DNA of 24,000 nucleotides. It comes from Candidatus Electronema sp. PJ (lineage in GTDB: Bacteria; Desulfobacterota; Desulfobulbia; Desulfobulbales; Desulfobulbaceae). Below the pieces are notes generated by a model that searched no databases, was not told where the DNA came from, and saw nothing but the letters and a program-made list of their open reading frames with translations. Both the position numbers and the translations under genes were made by a program. Shown one piece after another: positions 5,281-22,195 of the stretch; the first letter of the stretch is position 1; every line of letters begins with the position of its first letter. Location: the NCBI RefSeq assembly GCF_048287395.1, contig NZ_JBLWEO010000083.1, positions 6,880-30,879 of the forward strand, in the 5' to 3' direction.

Positions 5281-5518
5281 GCAGCAAGGGGAACAGGGTG
5301 TGCAGGTGAGCAAAAGCCCTCTGCAACGGGGAAAAATGGCCGTGCATCAGTGAAAAATCGTTCTGTAACGTGGAGAAATGACTGTGTAGCGGTGAAAAAT
5401 CACCCTGCACCGGTGAAAAATGATCGTGCAGTGGGTAAAAACGACAGTGCAGCAGGGAAAAACCATTCTGCAGCGGGGAAAAACGACTGTGCAGCACTGC
5501 ACCACCATTTTTCCCCGT
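5281..5518. repeat. Array 1: ten direct 21-nt degenerate tandem units plus one inverted terminal unit
   Basis: The GAAAAA-type core recurs at 5331, 5352, 5373, 5394, 5415, 5436, 5457 and 5478, exactly 21 nt apart. Weaker copies lie at 5289 and 5310. Unit consensus is about GCAGCGGTGAAAAAYNNYYGT. The last element is inverted (TTTTTCCCCG at 5508-5517) and pairs with CGGGGAAAAA at 5474-5483. Confidence 0.85.
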
Positions 5519-5526
5519 GTATTTAT

Positions 5527-5558
5527 CAGAAAACGGAAGGCCGCTGCCTCTCCTTCCG
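5527..5558 (-). terminator. Candidate intrinsic terminator for the minus-strand repeat/beta-barrel gene
   Basis: Stem CGGAAGG(5534-5540)/CCTTCCG(5552-5558). On the minus strand it is followed by TTTTCTGATAAATA. It lies about 20 nt downstream of the stop at 5580-5582. Confidence 0.5.
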
Positions 5559-8727: not shown

Positions 8728-8997
8728 GTCTATCGTGTCCGTCCTGTCTCGAGTCCCGCTGAAAAGTATTCGGAAATCATGTGCCTTGCTGAAGACTACC
8801 TGAAGAAGAGACATTGTAAACCGGTAGCTGCCGATTGTCCAGTACCGACTGAGTAAGTAACAGATGACTTGGCGTAGAGTAGGGCGAAGTTTCATCAGAA
8901 TGCGTTTGCATGGTAGGCGGAGAAGGAGTAACTTGCAGTGGATAAACTGCGCGGTGCTCACGCACAGCTCAGTTGCCAGTAACCTTCACCTTTTTCT

Positions 8998-10302
8998 ATG
9001 CAAATGACCGACCGAGCCAAAACCGTTGCTGATGCCTACCGGGCCTGCAACCCGGAAAAGCCTCTGTCTGCTGAGGATGATCGCTATGTTGATCTCTCGG
9101 AAAGCCGGGGCGTGGAGCATATTGCTGAACTCATCACCTGGAGAATCCAGAACAGCGAACCTGCCGTGCAAATCAAACAGCTTTTCACTGGCCATCGCGG
9201 TTCTGGCTAGACCACTGAGCTGTTTCGTTTGCAAAAGGAACTGGAGAACAACAAGTTCTGCACAGTGTATATGGACGTGGAAGAGCTGCTTGATCTGGGT
9301 TCGCTCAATTATCTTGACGTGCTGGTAGCTATCGCCCGCCAACTTCAGGAAGAGCTGGCCAAAAGAGACCTGCCGCTGCCAGATGTGCTCCTGAATAACA
9401 TCGCGAGCTGGTTTGACGAGTGTATTGTTGAAGAGACAAAGAGCACGGAAAAGCAAGGCTGCGTTGGAACTGAGGCGAAAGCAGGCAGCAAAATCCCCTT
9501 TTTCGCCGAACTGTTTGCCAGCGTCACCGCCAACATTAAGACTGGCAGCACCCAGCGGGAGACGATCAGGAAAAAACTGAGCCGGGAACTCAGTGTGTTT
9601 ATGGACAAGCTCAACCTGCTGATCAGTACGGCCCGCGAAAAGGTGCGCAAAAAAGGCTTTGCTGATCTTGTCCTGATTGTGGACGGCATGGAGAAGATGC
9701 ACTACGAGCTGAATTCAGAAGGTCAGTCCAACTACAACGTGCTTTTCATTCACAACGCCGAGCGGCTGCGGGCACCGGAATGCCACATCATTTACACCGT
9801 GCCGGTTTCGCTCGCCTATCAGCAAAATCTCAAGGCGTATTTTGATGACATTATCGTCCTACCGATGGTCAAGACGGATAAGCCAGGCATCAAGAAGCTG
9901 ATTGAGGTTGTCGAACGGCGAGTGGATACCAGTTTGGTCTTCGGCGGGCCTAAACTGCTGACCAAGCTGGCGCAGACCAGTGGCGGCGTGGTGCGCGACC
10001 TGATGCACTTGATACGGATGTCGATGGAGACCAAAGCCGAGCAGATTGGCGCGGCTGATGTGGATCGCGCTATCTCTAATCTGCGTAAAATCTATGATCG
10101 CCTGATTCGCGAAAACGATATCGAGCACTTCCAGCGGATTCAGCGCACTCGCCGCATCCAAGGCGGCGATGAAAAGGCGGGCCGCCTGCTTGACCAACGC
10201 TTAGTACTGGAGTATCAGAACGGCGATCTTTGGGCAGATATCCACCCAATCGTTCGCCAAATCCCCTGGGTCAAAGCTGCGCTGGCTGACCATGCAGCCT
10301 GA
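8998..10302 (+). pseudogene. STAND/AAA-like P-loop NTPase interrupted by one in-frame TAG at the Walker A lysine codon (9208-9210)
   Basis: ORFs 8998-9210 and 9229-10302 are in the same frame. Reading through gives ...IKQLFTGHRGSG*TTELFRLQKEL..., which is GxxGxGK[ST]T with the K codon replaced by TAG. A Walker-B-like, NACHT-like motif FADLVLIVDGMEKM lies at about 9661-9699. No other stop occurs in the downstream 364 codons. Confidence 0.6.
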
Positions 10303-11845
10303 AAGCACCGAATCCGTTATCAGCCGGATATGCCGCGCTCTGAGCTGGGCAGACGGCTTTGCCCTCTTCTTTGTCCTCGTCAATCTGCCAACAGCGCGGA
10401 AGGCCCTGGCCCGCCAAGTGATCACCCAGTTTGCGCGGCCCGTTGTTGAGCTGACTGTACCGCAGCAGGGCTTTGGCGGCACGACCTTAGACGGCTGGCT
10501 ACTGCCTCAGTTGTCAGGCACAGACGAAACCAGCCCGGTTTTCCTGCATGGCTTGGACCAGCTCCTGCCTAGCGGGCAAAAGCAGCTGCGGCATTTCCTC
10601 CAGCAGCTCAATTGGCGGCGTTCTGCGCTGGCTGCGATCAAGCGGCCTTTGGTGCTTTGGCTGCCGCGCCACGCTTTGGACAGCCTGGCCGAGTATGCGC
10701 CGGACTTTTACGACTGGTACAGCAATGTTTATGAGTTTGCCTCGCCGGATGAGGAAGCAGTGCAGCTGGGCAATGGCTTTAGGGCGGAATTCAACACCGA
10801 GGTGCATCCAGCCTTACGCCAAAGCAAGGCAGAAAAGGAGCAATGGCTGCACACCTTGACCGTGCTCCTGGATGAACACCCGGAACGCAACGCCTACCGG
10901 GCCAAGTTGCTTTATGATACAGGCCAACTGCATTATGCTCTGGGCAATTTGGATGATGCCTTTGCCTTGTACAAGCAATCACTCGACATCTACAGAGAAC
11001 TTGGCAACAAGCAGGGGGAAGGAGCACGTCTCAACAACATCTCTCAGATTTACCATACCCGGGGTGACTACGAAACCGCGCTCGAATATCTCCAGCAGGC
11101 ACTCGCAATTCAGCAGGAGATTGGCGATAAGCAGGGGGAAGGAGAAAGCTTCAACAACATCTCCCAAATTTACAAAGCCCGGGGCGAATACGAAACCGCG
11201 CTTAACTATCTTGAACAGTCGCTCAACATCCGCAGAGAACTTGGCGACAAGCAGAGAGAAGGAGTAATTCTCAACAATATTTCCGGGATTTACTATGCCC
11301 TTGGCGACGACGAAACCGCACTTAACTATCTTAAACAGTCGCTCGAGATCAGCAAAGTACTCGGCGACAAGCAGGGAGAAGGAGTAATCTTCAACAACAT
11401 TTCCCAGATTTACTATGCCAGTGGCGACGACGAAACAGCACTTAATTATCTTAAACAGTCGCTCGAGATCAGCAAATTACTCGGTGACAAGCAAGGAGAA
11501 GGAGTAATCCTTAACAACATCTCGTTGATTTATAAGGCCCATGGCGACTACGAAACCGCGCTCGACTTTCTCCAGCAATCACTTGTAATTCGTCAGGAGA
11601 CTGGCAACAAGGCAGGGCTTTGTACCACCCTATTCAACATCGGCCATCTTCACAGAAACAAAGGAGAAGAGGAAAAAGCCCGGCAAATGTGGGTGCAAGC
11701 CTATCTGCTGGCCAAAGAAATCGGCTACGCTGACGTATTGCATAATTTGGAGCAATTAGCCAAAAAACTTGGCTGGGAAGGCGGCTTACAGGCTTGGCAA
11801 ACACTGGCAAAGAAGTTCAACCTGGGCAAGACCAAGCCAGATTGA
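10292..11845 (+). CDS. TPR-repeat protein with an N-terminal domain of about 170 aa and unknown function
   Basis: The ATG at 10292 overlaps the NTPase stop (10300-10302) by 11 nt. There are about seven 40-aa TPR_12-like units, for example GDYETALEYLQQALAIQQEIGDKQGEGESFNNISQIYKAR. Confidence 0.85.
   Translation: MQPESTESVISRICRALSWADGFALFFVLVNLPTARKALARQVITQFARPVVELTVPQQGFGGTTLDGWLLPQLSGTDETSPVFLHGLDQLLPSGQKQLRHFLQQLNWRRSALAAIKRPLVLWLPRHALDSLAEYAPDFYDWYSNVYEFASPDEEAVQLGNGFRAEFNTEVHPALRQSKAEKEQWLHTLTVLLDEHPERNAYRAKLLYDTGQLHYALGNLDDAFALYKQSLDIYRELGNKQGEGARLNNISQIYHTRGDYETALEYLQQALAIQQEIGDKQGEGESFNNISQIYKARGEYETALNYLEQSLNIRRELGDKQREGVILNNISGIYYALGDDETALNYLKQSLEISKVLGDKQGEGVIFNNISQIYYASGDDETALNYLKQSLEISKLLGDKQGEGVILNNISLIYKAHGDYETALDFLQQSLVIRQETGNKAGLCTTLFNIGHLHRNKGEEEKARQMWVQAYLLAKEIGYADVLHNLEQLAKKLGWEGGLQAWQTLAKKFNLGKTKPD
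10890..11730 (+). repeat. Intragenic 120-bp tandem repeats encoding the TPR units
   Basis: The TCAACAACAT-type motif recurs at 11031, 11151, 11271, 11391, 11511 and 11631, exactly 120 nt apart. The units around 11300-11410 and 11420-11530 are nearly identical at the nucleotide level. Confidence 0.85.
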
Positions 11846-11859
11846 TTCGAGTCTGGCCT

Positions 11860-12150
11860 CTGCGCACTCCTTTGCCAGCTGCTTGCTCTGCTTGGTAAGT
11901 CGCTCGCCAAGGAGTTTGGCTCGGCAGAACTCCTTTCCTACTCGGCCAAACTCCTTTGTTGCCTAGCCGCATTCCTTTTCTGCCGACTCCAACTCCTTTC
12001 TTGCCGACTTGCACTCCTTTCCGGCCAAACAGCAAAGGAGTGCGGCCAAGCAAAACTCCTTTGTTGCCTAGCCGAACTCCTTTGCGGCTTGGCAAAACTC
12101 CTCTTCTGCCGAGTACAACTCCTTGCTTACCGACTTGCAAAGCAGGGGAA
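11860..12150. repeat. Array 2: about 14 phased 21-nt degenerate tandem units
   Basis: The ACTCCTTT-type core occurs at 11866, 11929, 11950, 11971, 11992, 12013, 12055, 12076, 12097 and 12118, all in 21-nt register. Inverted cores AAAGGAGT/AAGGAGT lie at 12034 (in register) and 11909 (1 nt off register). Unit is about ACTCCTTTSTTGCCGASYYRM. Confidence 0.85.
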
Positions 12151-12184
12151 ACAGGTGGCAATGGCTGGGAAATCCAGCGAAATC

Positions 12185-13822
12185 CTACAACAGCCCGTTC
12201 ACTATCGCCTTGGCCTCGTCCTGAATCCGGGCCAAGTGCGCCGCATCAATGAAACTCTCGGCGTAAATTTTGTAGATGTCCTCGGTGCCGGAAGGCCGCA
12301 GGGCGCACCAGCCGTTGGCCGCGACAATCTTCAGCCCACCGATGGCTGCGCCGTTGCCCGGTGCTTTGGTGAGAATGGCAACGATGGGTTCTCCGGCCAA
12401 GGTTTTCACCGGCACGTCCTCCGGCTGCAATTTCTTCAGCACCGCCTTCTGCACGGGCGTGGCGGGCGCGTCAATGCGAGCATAAACCGGCGCACCAAAC
12501 TGCTGCGTCAGATCTTGATAGTATTCGCCCGGATCGCGTCCGGTTCGCGCCGTGATTTCAGCCGCCAGCAGGTTGAGGATGATGCCGTCCTTGTCCGTGC
12601 TCCAGACCGTGCCGTCCTTGCGCAGGAAGCTCGCGCCCGCGCTTTCCTCGCCGCCAAAAAAAACTTTGCCCTTGAGCAGGCCGTCCACGAACCATTTGAA
12701 ACCGACCGGCACTTCAACCACTTTGCGGCCCAGCGCGGCGGCGGCGCGATCAATGATTGAGCTGCTGACTAAGGTTTTACCTATACCCAAATCAGCTCGC
12801 CACTGCGGACGATGCTGGGCTAAGTAGGAAATAGCGACGCTCAGGTAGTGATTTGGGTTCATCAGGCCCATGCTCTTGGTGACAATGCCGTGGCGGTCAA
12901 AGTCGGTGTCGTTGCCAAAGGCGATATCAAAGTCCGCCTTCATCGCCACCAGCCCGGCCATCGCGTAGGGCGAGGAGCAGTCCATGCGGATTTTGCCATC
13001 CTTATCGCAGTGCATGAAGGAGAAGGTGGAATCGAGCGTGTCGTGGAAAATCTCCATGTTCAAGCCGTATTGCGCCTTAATCGCCTGCCAGTAGGCCATG
13101 CCTGCGCCGCCCATTGCGTCCGCGCCAATGCGGATGCCGGACTTGGCAATGGCCTCCATGTCAATCACTTGGGTCAAATCCTTGACATAAGGCAGCACGT
13201 AATCGTACAAACGCAGTGTCTCCACCTTGAGCGCGTCCGCCAGCGGCAGTATTTTTACTCCAGCTAAATTGTCTTCAAGCAGCTGGTTAGCGCGGGCCTC
13301 GATAACGCTGGTCACATCGGTATCTGCTGGGCCACCATGCGGCGGATTGTACTTGAACCCGCCGTCAGCAGGCGGATTATGTGACGGGGTGATGACGATG
13401 CCGTCGCAAAGCGGTCTGCCCTGCTGGTTATGGGTGAGGATAGCGTGTGAGATGACTGGTGTGGGCGTGTAAACCGAATTCCCAGCGGCAATACAGACCT
13501 GTACCTTGTTGGCGGCCAGCACTCGCAACGCCGTGAGCTGGGCAGGCCAGGAGAGCGGGTGGGTATCCATGCCCATGAACAAGGTGCCATTGATGCCTGC
13601 TTCACGTCGGTAATCACAAACAGCCTGGGTAATGGCCAAGATGTGCGCCTCGTTGAAGCTGCGCTTAAGCGCACTCCCACGATGGCCAGAAGTGCCGAAG
13701 CTGACTCTTTCCGCGCTCTGCTGCGTATCAGGAATCAAGGTAAAATAGGCGGAAATTAATTCCGGGACATTGATTAATATCGATTGCGGGGCAGGCAGGC
13801 CTGCTAAAGGGTGGGTGCTCAT
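12185..13822 (-). CDS. pgm: Alpha-D-glucose phosphate-specific phosphoglucomutase
   Basis: Start trimmed to ATG at 13822 ([12 protein letters not shown]...), with AGGAGGAA upstream. The product is 546 aa, the same length as E. coli Pgm. Active-site loop is [17 protein letters not shown]. Metal loop is GADAMGG. C-terminus contains ...[18 protein letters not shown]. Confidence 0.92.
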
Positions 13823-13950
13823 GGTTCCTCCTGTGCTGTTTACTGGTCGTGCTGCTTCTCTGCTGCGGCAAAAGTATCCCGTCTTCGTCAATCTTGCCAG
13901 AGAAAAACAGCAGTTGGCAGGCAGCCTTGCCCAGAAAAACGCAGAAAGCC

Positions 13951-13979
13951 GTTGACAGCTTCTGCTGTTTAGCATAAAG
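13951..13979 (+). promoter_or_regulatory. Candidate sigma70-type promoter for rpsU
   Basis: TTGACA (13951-13956), a 17-nt spacer, then TAAAGT (13974-13979). It lies about 70 nt upstream of the rpsU ATG. This is sequence pattern only. Confidence 0.35.
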
Positions 13980-14051
13980 TGACCCGCTTATGCACTTTAA
14001 GATGAACACGCAGATGGGACATGCCATTTCAGCAAAGGATGTGATTTTTTC

Positions 14052-14246
14052 ATGATAGAGGTTGAAGTTAAAGGAGACCTTGAGTACGCGATTCGTCAGT
14101 TAAAGAAGAAACTACAGATTGACGGCATCAAACGTGAACTCAAACGGCGCGAGGCTTACGAGAAGCCCAGCATTAAAAAACGCCGCAAGTCTGCTGAAGC
14201 CCTGCGCAAGCTGCGCAAGTACAACCGGATTAAAAACCGGATGTAG
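14052..14246 (+). CDS. rpsU: 30S ribosomal protein bS21
   Basis: A 64-aa, highly basic protein with the S21 signature (LRKLRKYNRIKN; EAYEKPSIKKRRK). AAGGA lies upstream of the ATG. Confidence 0.93.
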   Translation: MIEVEVKGDLEYAIRQLKKKLQIDGIKRELKRREAYEKPSIKKRRKSAEALRKLRKYNRIKNRM

Positions 14247-14254
14247 GTTTTCAG

Positions 14255-14292
14255 GCCCTGCCACTGTTCCACTTGGCAGGGCTTTCTTTTTT
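14255..14292 (+). terminator. Intrinsic terminator after rpsU
   Basis: Stem GCCCTGCCA/TGGCAGGGC followed by TTTCTTTTTT. Confidence 0.75.
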
Positions 14293-14318
14293 ACTGCCCT
14301 CCTCGCCACTGCTGTTCT

Positions 14319-15230
14319 GTGTTGGAAACCTCGCCTCTGATTGACAGCCTTGACCACTTTCTGCGCCATCTCACGGTACAGCGTAGGCTCTCTCTGAACA
14401 CGGTTAATAGCTACGGTTCTGATCTGCGGTTCTTTATAGAATTTCTCCAAAAGCAGCACATAGACGATCCAGCGCACATCACTGCCGTTGAAGTTCGGGC
14501 TTTCCTAAAAGATTGCTTTGCGCGCGAGATTCAAGCCCGTAGTAATGCCCGACGACTCTCTGCTCTACGCTCCTTTTTCGCTTTCCTGGTCTTGCAAGGA
14601 AAGCTCACTGTCAGCCCAGCAGCAGAGATAGACCTACCCAAGATTGGCAGCATTCTTCCAGGAACTCTGTCTGTCGCCGAAGTTGATCTCTTGCTCGTAC
14701 CACCTGATGCGGGCGAGACTGATCCATTGCTGTTGCGCAATGCCGCGATGCTCCACTTGCTCTATGCCACTGGTATCCGGGTTTCCGAATTAGTCAATCT
14801 GCCCGTGCAGGATTGCAGTTTGAGCAGCGGCCATGTCCGCATTCTTGGCAAAGGGAATAAAGAGCGCATGGTGCCATTCAACACCGAGGCAGGTGTGAGA
14901 ATTACAGCTTATTTGGAACAAGGCCGTCCAGTATTACTGAGCGGGCGGAGTAGCCGTTTTCTCTTTGTCACCAAACAAGGTGGAGCCATGACCCGCAACC
15001 GCTTCTGGCGGATCATTGGCGAACTGGCCCGACAGCGCGGCATCAGTAAGACTGTCAGTCCCAAGACCATGCGGCACTCTTTCGCTACCCACATGCTGGC
15101 AGGCGGAGCCGATTTGCGTGCTCTCCAGATGATGCTCGGTCATGCTGATATTGCCACTACCCAAATTTATACCCACGTTGATAAAAGTCGCCTCAAGGCC
15201 GGGCACCAGAAGTTTCACCCACGCGGCTAA
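14319..15230 (+). CDS. xerD: Tyrosine recombinase XerD
   Basis: Collinear with E. coli XerD. Shared motifs include LYATGIRVSELV, ILGKGNKERMVP, MRHSFATHML, GADLRALQMMLGHADIATTQIYTHV and a C-terminal HPRG. Apparent GTG start at 14319. Confidence 0.85.
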   Translation: MLETSPLIDSLDHFLRHLTVQRRLSLNTVNSYGSDLRFFIEFLQKQHIDDPAHITAVEVRAFLKDCFAREIQARSNARRLSALRSFFAFLVLQGKLTVSPAAEIDLPKIGSILPGTLSVAEVDLLLVPPDAGETDPLLLRNAAMLHLLYATGIRVSELVNLPVQDCSLSSGHVRILGKGNKERMVPFNTEAGVRITAYLEQGRPVLLSGRSSRFLFVTKQGGAMTRNRFWRIIGELARQRGISKTVSPKTMRHSFATHMLAGGADLRALQMMLGHADIATTQIYTHVDKSRLKAGHQKFHPRG

Positions 15231-15953: not shown

Positions 15954-16655
15954 TTGTTGTTAAAGCTTACCTTCATGCCAGGTCTTGATGGAACAGGGAT
16001 CTCCTTCGAGCCTCTGCGCAGATTTCTGCCTCACAATATTGCCGCTACCGTTATCCGATATCCGTCAGACCGGCTCCTCTCTTTTGCAGACACTGTTGAT
16101 TGCGCTTTCGAGCAGATTGCGGGAGAGCAAGACATCATAGTAGCAGAATCTTTTTCAGGGCCGGTAGCAATTGCACTTCTTGGATCAGGCAGAGTCAAAG
16201 CCAAAGGAGTCCTTCTTTGCGCTACCTTTGCTCGGCTACCCAAACGATTCGCTTTCCTGAATATGAACGCATTGCCTCTTGAATTCGGCTTTCGTGCTCC
16301 GTTTCAGAACCTACTGCTGCGGTATTTTATTGGCAATGCAAAGAAGAGGCAATCTCTTGAATCCATGCAGGAGCGAATAGCAGAGATCGTTCCCGTGAAA
16401 ACAATAGTTCATCGGATTCGTTTGCTTTCATCTCTTGATGTCCGTCCGTGGCTTCCGCATCTCAAGATGCCTTGCTGGTACATTCGGCCAACCAGGGATA
16501 GGCTTCTTCCGGCAAAGGTAGCTACTGATTTTGTTCAGGCGATACCCCACCTAGTCATAAAAGAGATACCGACATCCCATTTCGTTCTTCAGTCAGAGCC
16601 AGCAGTTTCAGCAGCAGTGATAGAGGAATTCATGAAAATCATACCTTGTGGATAA
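15954..16655 (+). CDS. Alpha/beta-fold hydrolase (start uncertain: TTG 15954 or ATG 15975)
   Basis: N-terminal PGLDGTG oxyanion-type motif and a nucleophile-elbow-like IVAESFSGPVA. The length fits an alpha/beta hydrolase. No specific family was recognised. Confidence 0.6.
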   Translation: MLLKLTFMPGLDGTGISFEPLRRFLPHNIAATVIRYPSDRLLSFADTVDCAFEQIAGEQDIIVAESFSGPVAIALLGSGRVKAKGVLLCATFARLPKRFAFLNMNALPLEFGFRAPFQNLLLRYFIGNAKKRQSLESMQERIAEIVPVKTIVHRIRLLSSLDVRPWLPHLKMPCWYIRPTRDRLLPAKVATDFVQAIPHLVIKEIPTSHFVLQSEPAVSAAVIEEFMKIIPCG

Positions 16656-16714
16656 CGCCGATTCGTTTCTTCATCCCACACCCGCCCTTGCCTCTCATCC
16701 ACGTTGGAGGGAAA

Positions 16715-17021
16715 GTATCATCTAGATGCGTCACTCAGGGTCATCAGGATGAGTCTTTCCTGTCATCTATATGAGTCTCCTAGGGTCATATAGATGACAC
16801 TTCTGGTATCATATAGATGGTACGTTCCCTCCAACGTATATAAGTCCGACCGACTTATACACGTATGTCCCTCGGACATACGTACGTTGGAGAAAAACTG
16901 GATCCTACGTTTGAGACTTCCTCGAACGTACGTTCCAGCATGTCTCGAACGAGTGTTTGAGGATTCCTCAAACGTACGTTTGACTTTTTCTCGAACGCTC
17001 GTTTGAGATTTTCTCAAACGT
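16715..17021. repeat. Array 4: about 13 phased units of 22-23 nt, each an internal palindrome or hairpin
   Basis: Family A has core TCATNTANATGA at 16718, 16741, 16763, 16786 and 16809. Family B consists of ACGT-bounded 23-nt hairpin units starting at 16861, 16884, 16907, 16930, 16953, 16976 and 16999. An example is ACGTATGTCC-ctc-GGACATACGT. Another is CGTTTGAGA-ttt-TCTCAAACG. A 14-bp perfect stem pairs 16761-16774 with 16786-16799. Confidence 0.85.
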
Positions 17022-17046
17022 ACGATCTAGTTTCCCGCCTCTGTTC

Positions 17047-17075
17047 TTGACAAACCGGGCTAGGCTCCGTATGCT
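17047..17075 (+). promoter_or_regulatory. Candidate sigma70-type promoter upstream of thyX
   Basis: TTGACA (17047-17052), a 17-nt spacer, then TATGCT (17070-17075). It lies directly downstream of array 4 and about 110 nt upstream of the thyX ATG. This is sequence pattern only. Confidence 0.3.
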
Positions 17076-17183
17076 GGTGGAGCAGGTCTTTTATCCCCTC
17101 GCATCAGCATCTTAACGCCCAGAGAAGAGCAATCTCCATCATTGGCAGACTTGAAATAACGTTCCTTCAAGAAAGTTGCATAC

Positions 17184-18113
17184 ATGAAAATCATCGCCCC
17201 GTCGTTTACTGTCCTTGATCATCTTGATCAGCAGAGCCTTGCTGTCCGCATCGAATATTGCGGGCGGATATGTTATAAGAGCGAAGATCGCATCACGCAT
17301 GAATCGGCCCTGCCATTTGTTGAGAAGATGGCCGAGCATGGTCACAACTCGGTGCTAGAAATGGGCGTAGTCACGCTGGAGGTCTGCGCAGAGGCAAGCG
17401 CGATCTATGAGCTTTTCCTTTGCCAGCCCAAATATTTGCACATCAGCCGCGAAGAGAACCGCCTGCTGATTACTGGCAGCATCCGAGCCTTCCGGGAAAT
17501 GCTGATGTTCCATCCAGACTGCGCTGTTATCCGGGCAACCTGTGCCTTGCTCAATGACCGCCACCCATATTTTTTCAGCAATATCCTGCCTGAAGGTGGG
17601 CTTGCCGCTGTGCCGTCGATCCTCGTGCGTAAGGTACCGCTTGAGGAAGTGGAGCGGTTGCCCATGAGAGAGCGTGCCAAACACCGGTACCTTGCGGTCA
17701 AGTTTGTTGTCAACCGCGCCGTGACCCACGAGATTGTCCGGCACCGCGTATGCAGTTTTTTGCAAGAGTCACAACGGTATTGCCGCTACAGCGACGACAA
17801 GTTTGGCAGCGAAGTGACCTTCATTAAGCCGATGTTTTGGGAAGAAGGCAGCGCGGAATATGCCATCTGGCAGCAGGCCATGCAGGAAACAGAACAGCTC
17901 TATCTGCGCCTACTCGAAACCTCGACAGCCCAAGCAGCACGGACAGTGCTGCCTAATTCGTGTAAGACCGAGATTATCGTCTATGCTAATCTGGAGCAGT
18001 GGCGACATATCTTCAAACTGCGCTGTTCTAAAGCGGCAGAGCCGTCTATGCGGGAAGTGATGGTGCCGCTAAGGGAGGAGTTTCAGCGGCGGTTTCCTGG
18101 CGTGTTTGTCTGA
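17184..18113 (+). CDS. thyX: FAD-dependent thymidylate synthase
   Basis: ThyX signature RHRxxSxxxxSxR is present as VRHRVCSFLQESQRY. At 309 aa it is at the long end for ThyX. Confidence 0.88.
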   Translation: MKIIAPSFTVLDHLDQQSLAVRIEYCGRICYKSEDRITHESALPFVEKMAEHGHNSVLEMGVVTLEVCAEASAIYELFLCQPKYLHISREENRLLITGSIRAFREMLMFHPDCAVIRATCALLNDRHPYFFSNILPEGGLAAVPSILVRKVPLEEVERLPMRERAKHRYLAVKFVVNRAVTHEIVRHRVCSFLQESQRYCRYSDDKFGSEVTFIKPMFWEEGSAEYAIWQQAMQETEQLYLRLLETSTAQAARTVLPNSCKTEIIVYANLEQWRHIFKLRCSKAAEPSMREVMVPLREEFQRRFPGVFV

Positions 18114-19511: not shown

Positions 19512-20669
19512 TCAATCTCTTTCCGGCCTGACTGCCTCTTGCTCTTCAGCCCGCATTGCCAGCGCATCCTCCAGAATGGCACTGACCTCGTTGGCAGCCC
19601 GCTGCATGGCTTCATCGCGGTAATGGGCGTACCGCTGGGTCATCTGCGGACTTTTGTGCGTCATCAGCTTTTGCAATGTGAACATGTCCACCTTGCCGCT
19701 ACTGGCCAGCATGGTGGCATATACATGTCGCAGCCCATGTAATGGCCGGAAATCTGCGGGCAACCCAGCTGTATCCCTAATCGCCCTGACCTCCTTGGCA
19801 ATGTCGTTGCGCTGGCCACCACCTTGGGCCGGGAAAACATATTCACCGCCCTGCTTCGCGAGGGATTGGAACAAAGCACTTGCGCTGTTGTTGAGCGGAA
19901 TCTTCTGACTCTTCCCACCTTTTGGCTCCCGGATATGGATGAAGCCCCGCTCGAAATCTATATCATCCCATTTCAGCTTGAATAGCTCGCCCCGGCGCAT
20001 ACCAGTATATAATACGAGCCGCATCATGTTAGCCGCTGGAACGCACGTGCTTGTCTCCATCGCTTTAAAGAGCCTCCGCATCTGCTCTGGGGTCAAGTCT
20101 TCGGTCTTGATGTTGTCAACAGAGGGCATGTCAATCTTGAAGGACAGGGGGGCAGTCCAGCCTAGCCCGCAGCCGTAATTCACAATCCTCTTCAGCAGAG
20201 TTAGAACATGCTTCACCGTCTGTGGTGCAAGGGTTTTCAGCAGGTTTGTTCGTAGTCGGTCAATGTCCAGCTTAGTAAGCTCGTGCGGCTCTTTGCTACC
20301 AAAGAGTTGCTTCAGGTATTTTGCATATCTGCCAGCATCACTTTGGGTTGACCGGCTGTCAGGTAAGCAAGCGCGGTAGGCTTCCCACAGATGCGCCACT
20401 GTTCGCCGTTGACTGATCTCTTCATCAGCGGCCTTGCGTCTGTCGCGATTACTTTGCTGTTTGCCTTCGATTTTATCTGAGCGGATGCCTGCGGCTTTAA
20501 CAGGAGTCATGTTGTCCTGGTACTGGCGGCCTGCCTTTTCTTCAACCAATTTTCCGTCTTTTCTGTAGCGGATATAGTAGATCCGCTCCGTCTTTTTCCC
20601 GTTGGCTGCCATGCCCTCAATGTAGAACACCCCGGCATAGTTTGTTTTATACCGTTTCATGCTTGCCAT
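19512..20669 (-). CDS. Tyrosine-type site-specific integrase (phage integrase family)
   Basis: Catalytic residues appear intact: TGMRRGEL (Arg), HGLRHVYAT (HxxR) and RYAHY (Tyr). The N-terminal SAM-like/arm-binding region is present. Confidence 0.88.
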   Translation of the reverse strand: MASMKRYKTNYAGVFYIEGMAANGKKTERIYYIRYRKDGKLVEEKAGRQYQDNMTPVKAAGIRSDKIEGKQQSNRDRRKAADEEISQRRTVAHLWEAYRACLPDSRSTQSDAGRYAKYLKQLFGSKEPHELTKLDIDRLRTNLLKTLAPQTVKHVLTLLKRIVNYGCGLGWTAPLSFKIDMPSVDNIKTEDLTPEQMRRLFKAMETSTCVPAANMMRLVLYTGMRRGELFKLKWDDIDFERGFIHIREPKGGKSQKIPLNNSASALFQSLAKQGGEYVFPAQGGGQRNDIAKEVRAIRDTAGLPADFRPLHGLRHVYATMLASSGKVDMFTLQKLMTHKSPQMTQRYAHYRDEAMQRAANEVSAILEDALAMRAEEQEAVRPERD

Positions 20670-21924: not shown

Positions 21925-22195
21925 TTGCAGTTTATCCGCAAAGGTCTTTTGTTAAGCCGCAAAAAGTTGTTGCTTAACAAAAGATCTTTGTTGTTTGGCA
22001 ACCAAGAGTTGTTGTTTCGCCGCAACCTTCTTCTGCTTGGCAACAAGAGGTTTATGCCGAGCCAAAGAAGGTTGTTGCTAAACAAGAGAAGGTTGTTATT
22101 TGGCAAGAACCTTCTCTTGCCGAGCTGAAACCTTTTGTTGCTCGGCAACAACTCTTCTTTGCCGAACAACAACCCTTTGTCAGCTAACTGTTGCC
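21925..22195. repeat. Array 3: about 12-13 phased 21-nt degenerate tandem units with embedded inverted repeats
   Basis: The TTGYTNRGCA-type anchor occurs at 21949, 21970, 21991, 22012, 22033, 22054, 22075, 22096, 22117, 22138 and 22159, exactly 21 nt apart. Perfect 12-bp inverted repeat CTTTTGTTAAGC(21946-21957)/GCTTAACAAAAG(21972-21983). Perfect 9-bp inverted repeat TTGCCGAGC(22117-22125)/GCTCGGCAA(22140-22148). Confidence 0.85.

Follow-up and report, generated by a model that had tools for sequence, protein, structure and literature searches.

What is the string of short palindromic units, repeated every 23 nucleotides (nt), that fills the spacer upstream of thyX in Candidatus Electronema sp. 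PJ, and does it serve that gene? We analyzed a stretch of 24,000 nt of this genome (termed the window herein), in which the array has genes for a hydrolase, ThyX, PgsA, and an aminotransferase as its neighbors. The features of the locus, in window coordinates, are the following.

15954 to 16655, + strand: gene for a BioH-like alpha/beta hydrolase, upstream of the array
16701 to 16711: left arm of the outer palindrome, ACGTTGGAGGG, B-type, fitting the half-site consensus ACGTTYGAGR
16718 to 16820: family A, five 12-nt near-palindromes, TCATCTAGATGC, TCATCAGGATGA, TCATCTATATGA, TCATATAGATGA, and TCATATAGATGG
16827 to 16837: right arm of the outer palindrome, CCCTCCAACGT, the exact 11-nt inverted partner of ACGTTGGAGGG
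16838 to 16883: family B units U1 and U2, GTCC/GGAC type, orthologous to the array of Electronema KV (contig L011, 6908 to 7007; profile z = 9.1)
16884 to 17021: family B units U3 to U8, TTTGAGA/TCTCAAA type, each exactly 23 nt, with a 46-nt super-period
17047 to 17075, + strand: sigma-70-like element TTGACA-17-TATGCT, 25 nt past the last unit, not conserved in KV
17184 to 18113, + strand: thyX (Pfam Thy1), downstream of the array

The near-palindromes of family A (TCATCTAGATGA-type) start at positions 16718, 16741, 16763, 16786, and 16809, with spacings of 23, 22, 23, and 23 nt, which confirms the coordinates given in an earlier sequence-only reading of the locus; the 11-nt inverted repeat that this reading had placed around them is indeed exact. 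Family A units 3 and 4 read identically on opposite strands, and the pattern TCATNTAGATGA, with at most one mismatch, gave 7 strand matches, all within the array stretch, versus 0.23 expected. Family B consists of the seven exact 23-nt units already reported across 16861 to 17021 and of an eighth that had gone uncounted (U1, 16838 to 16860; ATATAAGTC-cgacc-GACTTATA) and that abuts the other seven; the arms of U2 pair without a mismatch (10-3-10), and its hairpin is put at −13.3 kcal/mol. The description of the seven units as each bounded by ACGT was too general, with five of them starting and four ending with this tetramer. TRF gave a period of 23, 0% indels, and the 46-nt super-period. In all, three or four types of unit, among them ACGTTTGAGATTTTCTCAAACGT and TCATCTAGATGA, make up the region from 16701 to 17021, some running in one direction and some in the other.

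In units U3 to U8, one can recognize a 10-nt half-site, ACGTTYGAGR, whose orientation alternates. This half-site occurs 10 times, with alternating orientation, between 16701 and 17021, and 14 times in the window versus 3.9 expected, the 4 occurrences outside the array being at chance level. Since the half-sites at 16701 (+) and 16828 (−) enclose family A, this family lies inside a B-type palindrome, as its "loop." There are also two long imperfect palindromes, close to each other in length (16701 to 16837, 137 nt; 16895 to 17033, 139 nt), and the two hairpins of ∼138 nt in the predicted fold arise because tandem palindromic units automatically make a long palindrome. A/T runs in the array lie 7 to 8 nt apart, not 10.5. 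The 351 nt from 16695 to 17045 hold 12 of the 39 ACGT sites of the window (∼30-fold denser), and CTAG, GTAC, and TATA are enriched there too. We considered ACGT avoidance or a restriction decoy and rejected it: the Markov observed/expected ratio for ACGT outside the array is an unremarkable 0.71, and it is ∼0.85 to 1.0 in most relatives.

The dyad symmetry, together with the strict 23-nt period, is far beyond chance, as the sequence-only reading had held. The arms of the units form on average 7.6 of 10 Watson-Crick pairs, versus 2.5 ± 0.5 (maximum, 4.5) in 5,000 composition-matched shuffles, and the correct register pairs at 78 to 82%, versus at most 50% in a slid register. The 356-nt region has predicted folding energies of −160.9 (+ strand; z = −12.2) and −153.8 kcal/mol (− strand; z = −11.1). 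Six of the eight B units (five of the seven first described as folding on themselves) fold better than their own shuffles, at −5.9 to −13.3 kcal/mol; those at 16884 and 16930 do not.

It had also been proposed that the symmetry is preserved by selection while the sequence drifts, which should show as the two arms of a hairpin changing together. Within the sub-families they do not. Pairing between the two arms of one TTTGAGA unit (7.17 of 10) is about the same as between arms of different units (7.27), and the covariation score was reached by 255 of 500 and 83 of 500 shuffles, i.e., was not above shuffles. The apparent drift with kept symmetry is the difference between two or three unit types (ATGTCC/GGACAT versus TTGAGA/TCTCAA), a single split. 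In the array stretch shared with KV, where the alignment was read directly, substitutions yield mismatches or wobbles and no compensated pairs. Stem mismatches of the G·U and A·C kinds stand at 4:3 in PJ and 3:6 in KV by hand count, with no sense-strand bias, and with the two kinds in balance, selection on an RNA hairpin is not detectable. Compensatory evolution of the arms was thus found neither within the sub-families nor between PJ and KV: the dyad symmetry is real, but it shows no detectable compensatory maintenance.

To place the array among relatives, thyX loci were compared across 12 genomes and 9 metagenome contigs, the relatives of the window being 81 to 86% identical in thyX. Four loci (L001, L002, L012, and L014, i.e., E. 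nielsenii, strain JC, E. aureum GS, and one metagenome contig) have pgsA overlapping thyX (ATGA), with no spacer and no array, and none of the nine metagenome thyX loci has one (one metagenome contig, L013, begins exactly at the thyX start codon, and its upstream region is not assembled). Electronema KV is the only relative with a spacer between pgsA and thyX; it is 186 nt long and is filled by an ACGT-phased 23-nt array. On this comparison of loci, the overlap is the ancestral state, and the array arose in part of the genus, by an insertion or expansion particular to that lineage, before PJ and KV split. The KV units align with 16831 to 16887 ungapped at 79% identity, versus 60% at four-fold sites of thyX, which suggests constraint at the sequence level that a pure hairpin barrier would not need. 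The hydrolase gene lies between pgsA and thyX only in strain PJ, and its next best homologue is just 59% identical, suggesting that it was acquired together with or next to the array.

These comparisons weaken the proposed link to the regulation of thyX. An array does precede thyX in one relative, KV, but it is missing from the four in which pgsA and thyX overlap, and no promoter-like site lies between array and thyX in KV; the array is therefore not a conserved thyX operator, and a conserved thyX operator or regulator was rejected as an explanation. The TTGACA-17-TATGCT element does lie where it had been reported, 25 nt past the array, but it is a single 10/12 match of a kind found at chance frequency (0.9 such sites in shuffles of the region). 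By eye, no sigma-54 promoter was seen after the array. The other arrays of the window, described below, lie at convergent gene ends, which have no promoters.

Two further observations concern the surroundings of the spacer. A 12-nt direct repeat, CATGAAAATCAT, occurs at 16632 to 16643 (3′ end of the hydrolase gene) and at 17183 to 17194 (spanning the thyX start codon) and so flanks the whole 539-nt spacer; it could be a scar of recombination or insertion, or microhomology. Genes for tyrosine recombinases lie on either side within 3 kb (a XerC/D-like protein of 303 amino acids, 14319 to 15230, and a phage-integrase-family protein of 385 amino acids, 19512 to 20669), and no link between these two genes and the array was found.

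The thyX array is one of four arrays that a lag scan detected in the window, where they make up ∼5% of the 24 kb. The other three are listed here; three of the four convergent intergenic spacers of the window hold an array.

5287 to 5538: W1, period 21, unit TGCAGCGGGGAAAAATGACCG, in the spacer where the histidine-kinase gene and an open reading frame (ORF) of 509 amino acids converge
11894 to 12173: W3, period 21, AACTCCTTTG core, units in either orientation, in the spacer where the TPR and phosphoglucomutase genes converge
21926 to 22182: W5, period 21, GCAACAAGAGGTTGTTGC-type unit, akin to W3, in the spacer where the M24 peptidase and subtilase genes converge

W1 carries A5 tracts phased every 21 bp and has little hairpin potential (z = −2.6). 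In W3, ∼10 copies of AACTCCTTT were seen, which are anti-Shine-Dalgarno-like on the + strand and read AAGGAG on the − strand.

A uniform lag scan over ∼208 kb of Electronema-lineage DNA, to which a further 28 kb (∼235 kb in total) added none, found 11 noncoding arrays, all with a period of 21 or 23. There were none in 129 kb of DNA from other Desulfobulbaceae and none in the shuffled controls. Array density is uneven, from four in 24 kb in PJ to zero in 20 kb in several relatives; JC and JM are among the array-poor strains. The geometry of the palindrome varies among arrays (arms of 6 to 10 nt, loops of 0 to 7 nt, linkers of 0 to 11 nt) and the period stays constant. Among the 10 placed arrays, a small sample, W1, W3, and W5 lie between convergent genes, the thyX array (W4), L004, L011, L012a, L012b, and L024 between codirectional genes, L001 is uncertain, and none lies between divergent genes; every array that could be given a position has at least one gene ending upstream of it. 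Within this small set, the 21-nt cases with a known position (W1, W3, and W5) fall in convergent spacers and the 23-nt cases in codirectional ones (L001 uncertain); the association is not independent, as those three 21-nt arrays share one genome. Another 21-nt palindromic array, in Electronema sp. TJ (L026, 13883 to 14015), borders a masked or unresolved run of N (14016 to 14991) and was left out of the placement.

Each array has largely its own unit sequence. BLAST searches with the array regions in ∼400 kb of related DNA (the window plus L001 to L021) matched the orthologue only, with no dispersed copies; the plasmid and phage collections and Rfam were also negative, and the array is not a fragment of a repeat family scattered through the DNA covered, an outcome that would have told against the sequence-only reading. 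Weak profile similarity, with z > 4, was nevertheless found for three nonorthologous pairs (W3 and W5, L012a and L012b, and family B of the thyX array and L012a), which is suggestive of kinship, as far as profiles can tell when the permutation null is perhaps lenient for palindromic sequences.

No orthologue of W3 was found downstream of phosphoglucomutase at about six to seven other loci, and in KV an IS30-like transposase fragment (L011, 1 to 163), at the end of the contig, lies just downstream of this gene, where PJ has W3. A TPR gene immediately followed by an array was seen both in PJ and in E. aureum GS (L012, 14349 to 15644). The 23-nt array of L004 (5536 to 5673; CACAGCAGGCTGTGACG plus 6 variable nt) has units that are ∼90% alike and is therefore young. 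It stops 37 nt short of a Crp/Fnr-family gene, and after it comes a short terminator-like hairpin, GCACTGGAGTGC-TTTT, similar to the unit.

Do such arrays belong to a known family? Rfam returned no family at the gathering score, only sub-threshold matches to eukaryotic microRNA hairpins and no CRISPR repeat, and significant covariation was likewise missing, which leaves neither mark of a structured RNA. No tRNA or transfer-messenger RNA was found, and the plasmid and phage collections gave no match to the array. The NrdR-type operator of genes for deoxynucleoside triphosphate synthesis is a 16-bp box, ACACWATATATWGTGT, in phased pairs; no match to this box was obtained with up to three mismatches. 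Coding repeats were rejected, as 23 nt is not a multiple of 3 and the ORFs across the arrays have no Pfam match and low-complexity translations. A CsrA sponge with GGA in the loops fits occasional units only, and for integron attC sites (CTCCAAC...GTTGGAG, 64 nt), there is neither a cassette structure nor evidence of IntI. The cable-bacteria literature that we searched does not mention such arrays, and searches for 21- or 23-bp tandem repeats also gave no relevant find.

The closest comparison is with the REP/BIME elements of enterobacteria and pseudomonads, which are likewise short imperfect extragenic palindromes, clustered, in both orientations, and of several families per genome, and which lie after the 3′ ends of genes and between convergent genes at strain- and species-specific locations. 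The palindromic stem-loop unit of ∼20 to 40 nt is present here (7.6 of 10 pairs; six of eight units folding significantly), as is the extragenic position at 3′ ends or between convergent rather than divergent genes (10 placed arrays, a small sample). REP clusters were recently described as dual terminators and stabilizers between tandem and convergent genes, with locations that vary by strain (bioRxiv 10.64898/2026.03.23.713779). Unlike REP/BIME elements, the arrays consist of head-to-tail abutting units with a strict 21- or 23-nt period and A/T-richer stems, and their sequence is largely particular to each array rather than a genome-wide consensus; the tens to hundreds of dispersed copies of one consensus that mark REP elements, and even dispersed single copies, were not seen in ∼400 kb, a partial test. 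REP elements further have an associated RAYT (a Y1 transposase) and a conserved tetranucleotide head; in the present array, ACGT bounds most of the B units.

Plasmid iterons and ParR/parC repeats share with the arrays their four to ten repeats, an element-specific sequence, often an inverted copy at one end, and a period of ∼22 bp, or two helical turns (iterons are direct repeats of 17 to 22 bp; here, the period is 23 with 0% indels, and 21 and 23 in the class). In contrast to these elements, no array has a rep or par gene, an A+T-rich unwinding region, or DnaA boxes beside it; the arrays are many per chromosome, have internally palindromic units instead of simple direct repeats, and lack plasmid similarity. 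Minisatellites, or variable-number tandem repeats, and the tandem repeats of Borgs usually consist of nearly identical copies, vary widely in unit length, and need have no dyad symmetry. They resemble the arrays in being intergenic and tandem, with a locus-specific unit and quick gain and loss between relatives; the units of the arrays, however, are 60 to 90% alike and palindromic, and their period is confined to 21 and 23.

A CRISPR is likewise built of regular, partly palindromic repeats, and family A would allow a reading as 12-nt repeats with variable spacers of 11 nt. Both are far too short for a CRISPR, which has repeats of 23 to 47 nt, unique spacers of similar length, and cas genes or a leader; family B has no spacers, and the window has no cas genes. 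Intrinsic terminators, too, are stem-loops after gene ends, with a G+C-rich stem ahead of a T-run, and the equal folding of the array on both strands recalls bidirectional terminators. The array differs from them in having eight or more consecutive hairpins with a T-run on the last unit only (the one terminator-like site inside it, 16989 to 17008, spans the U7/U8 junction and reaches into the last unit), and in KV an essential gene follows the array and no promoter-like site stands between the two. As for miniature inverted-repeat transposable elements (MITEs), inverted ends are present, but neither a duplication at their borders nor, in the ∼400 kb of related DNA, another copy was found.

Taken together, the thyX array belongs to an apparently undescribed set of intergenic arrays with 21- or 23-nt periods in freshwater Ca. 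Electronema. Our main reading, to which we give a probability of roughly 40%, is that it is a lineage-specific, REP/BIME-like cluster of extragenic palindromes that grows in place and acts as a hairpin barrier when transcribed. Such arrays would expand and be renewed where they lie, through slippage or unequal recombination among their units, which would preserve the period, and their dyad symmetry would be inherited from the founding unit (the half-site in alternating orientation) instead of being kept by compensatory substitution; symmetry without covariation fits an inherited half-site. Since the flanking genes are on the + strand and thyX of KV can be reached only through the array, the array is probably transcribed, although transcription of the arrays and any effect at the RNA level are what we infer. 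The RNA would form a run of stable stem-loops, act like a REP/BIME cluster of E. coli, hinder 3′-to-5′ decay of the upstream message, and partly block read-through. In PJ, thyX would thereby lose the translational coupling to pgsA that it had ancestrally and would depend on the promoter-like site just after the array. Counting against a hairpin barrier are W1, with its z of only −2.6, and the T-run, which follows the stem of just the last unit of the thyX array; counting against the REP-like part is that no unit sequence is dispersed in the ∼400 kb of related DNA.

Several other explanations compete with a REP-like barrier. Several observations would suit a neutral or selfish minisatellite, i.e., a hairpin-bearing spacer that was amplified and is tolerated only where promoters stay intact, with quasi-palindrome template switching keeping the arms alike: arrays come and go among close relatives, the W3 site is empty at six other phosphoglucomutase loci, PJ is array-rich and several relatives have none, the arms do not covary, and the young L004 array speaks for ongoing amplification. 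We nevertheless consider this somewhat unlikely. The array has been kept since the split of PJ and KV, with units conserved above four-fold sites and no indels across eight diverged units, and arbitrary founders do not predict a period limited to 21 and 23. Bacterial genomes have a deletion bias that disfavors the retention of junk, which argues against ∼5% of 24 kb being kept as such. Conservation above neutral sites is instead what a binding array at the DNA level would show, in which each 23-bp unit consists of inverted half-sites (ACGTTYGAGR-N3-YCTCRAACGT) for a dimeric protein, and the dimers sit about two helical turns apart, as in iterons, ParR/parC, and ARG-box pairs, regulating thyX or organizing the local DNA. 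The 10 alternating half-sites and their excess in the window are in line with this, as are arms without covariation (as a conserved half-site predicts), wobble pairs without strand bias, a spacing of 21 to 23 bp (∼two turns of DNA) that is constant while hairpin geometry differs, and the end of the array 25 nt ahead of a −35-like hexamer. Binding is still an unlikely explanation: sequences are array specific, and one protein cannot read them all; the sister arrays lie at convergent gene ends, where there is nothing to regulate; outside the array, half-sites are no more frequent than chance predicts; no gene for replication, partition, or a candidate regulator adjoins the array; no NrdR-box-like site is present; and most relatives express thyX with no array.

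A nonautonomous mobile element, i.e., a MITE or a REP/REPIN moved in trans (for example, by a RAYT), would account for the two long palindromes of 137 and 139 nt as two inserted copies, for the empty site in relatives, for the relatedness of some arrays at different loci, and for the CATGAAAATCAT repeat around the entire spacer. We regard it as very unlikely, given that neither long palindrome has a target-site duplication at its ends or a second copy in ∼400 kb of related DNA, that such a palindrome is automatic for any tandem palindromic array, and that no transposase lies nearby, only the two tyrosine recombinases. The same ∼138-bp palindromes are similar in length to the footprint of gyrase, and BIME-2 elements are reported to involve gyrase in the handling of supercoiling. 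The array might be imagined as an element of DNA topology: bendable DNA in phase, or DNA prone to form cruciforms, that at gene ends binds gyrase or a nucleoid protein, or extrudes cruciforms, and absorbs the supercoiling of transcription; the enrichment of arrays between convergent genes, the A5 tracts of W1 phased at 21 bp (two turns), and palindromes that are equally strong on both strands would agree with it. A 23-bp period is out of phase with the helix of B-DNA, and the A/T runs of the array lie 7 to 8 nt apart instead of 10.5; we take this explanation to be extremely improbable.

One property sets the whole class apart. The sequence-only reading had argued that simple slippage would not suffice, and this stands, though for the reason that slippage cannot explain one period shared among unrelated arrays. 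The period is always 21 or 23 despite differing lengths of arms, loops, and linkers, which in-place slippage fails to explain and which points to a ruler at the DNA level or to shared ancestry. The quantized period, independent of hairpin geometry, is explained neither by the REP-like reading nor by any of its rivals, and a period so sharply quantized calls for a mechanism. Quite doubtful, but worth stating, is that the arrays constitute a previously undescribed genome-wide palindromic array system of freshwater cable bacteria, in which the length of the unit is set by a molecular ruler independently of sequence and hairpin. If so, a dedicated machine would be implied, with the thyX array as one of its substrates; it might be a polymerizing DNA-binding protein that reads structure or phase, an enzyme that makes units of fixed length, or a processing of transcripts into RNAs of ∼22 nt.

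Should the class prove to extend through the genome, it would be a kind of extragenic palindromic repeat peculiar to cable bacteria. The arrays also reshape operons, as in the ancestrally overlapping pgsA-thyX pair that is split here, and would be useful as strain markers. They offer a natural test of the tuning of expression by gene-end hairpins outside the enterobacteria, in which REP elements were studied.

A few observations concern coding regions of the window. Long ORFs overlap on opposite strands at 8986 to 9702 (−) and 9229 to 10302 (+), neither with a Pfam match. Tandem repeats of 120 and 240 nt at 10982 to 11563 are the coding TPR repeats of a protein of 517 amino acids. The phosphoglucomutase ORF next to W3 (12185 to 13975) encodes 596 amino acids and its homologues, which cover 91% of it, have ∼546, so that the true start is probably ∼50 codons past the first ATG.
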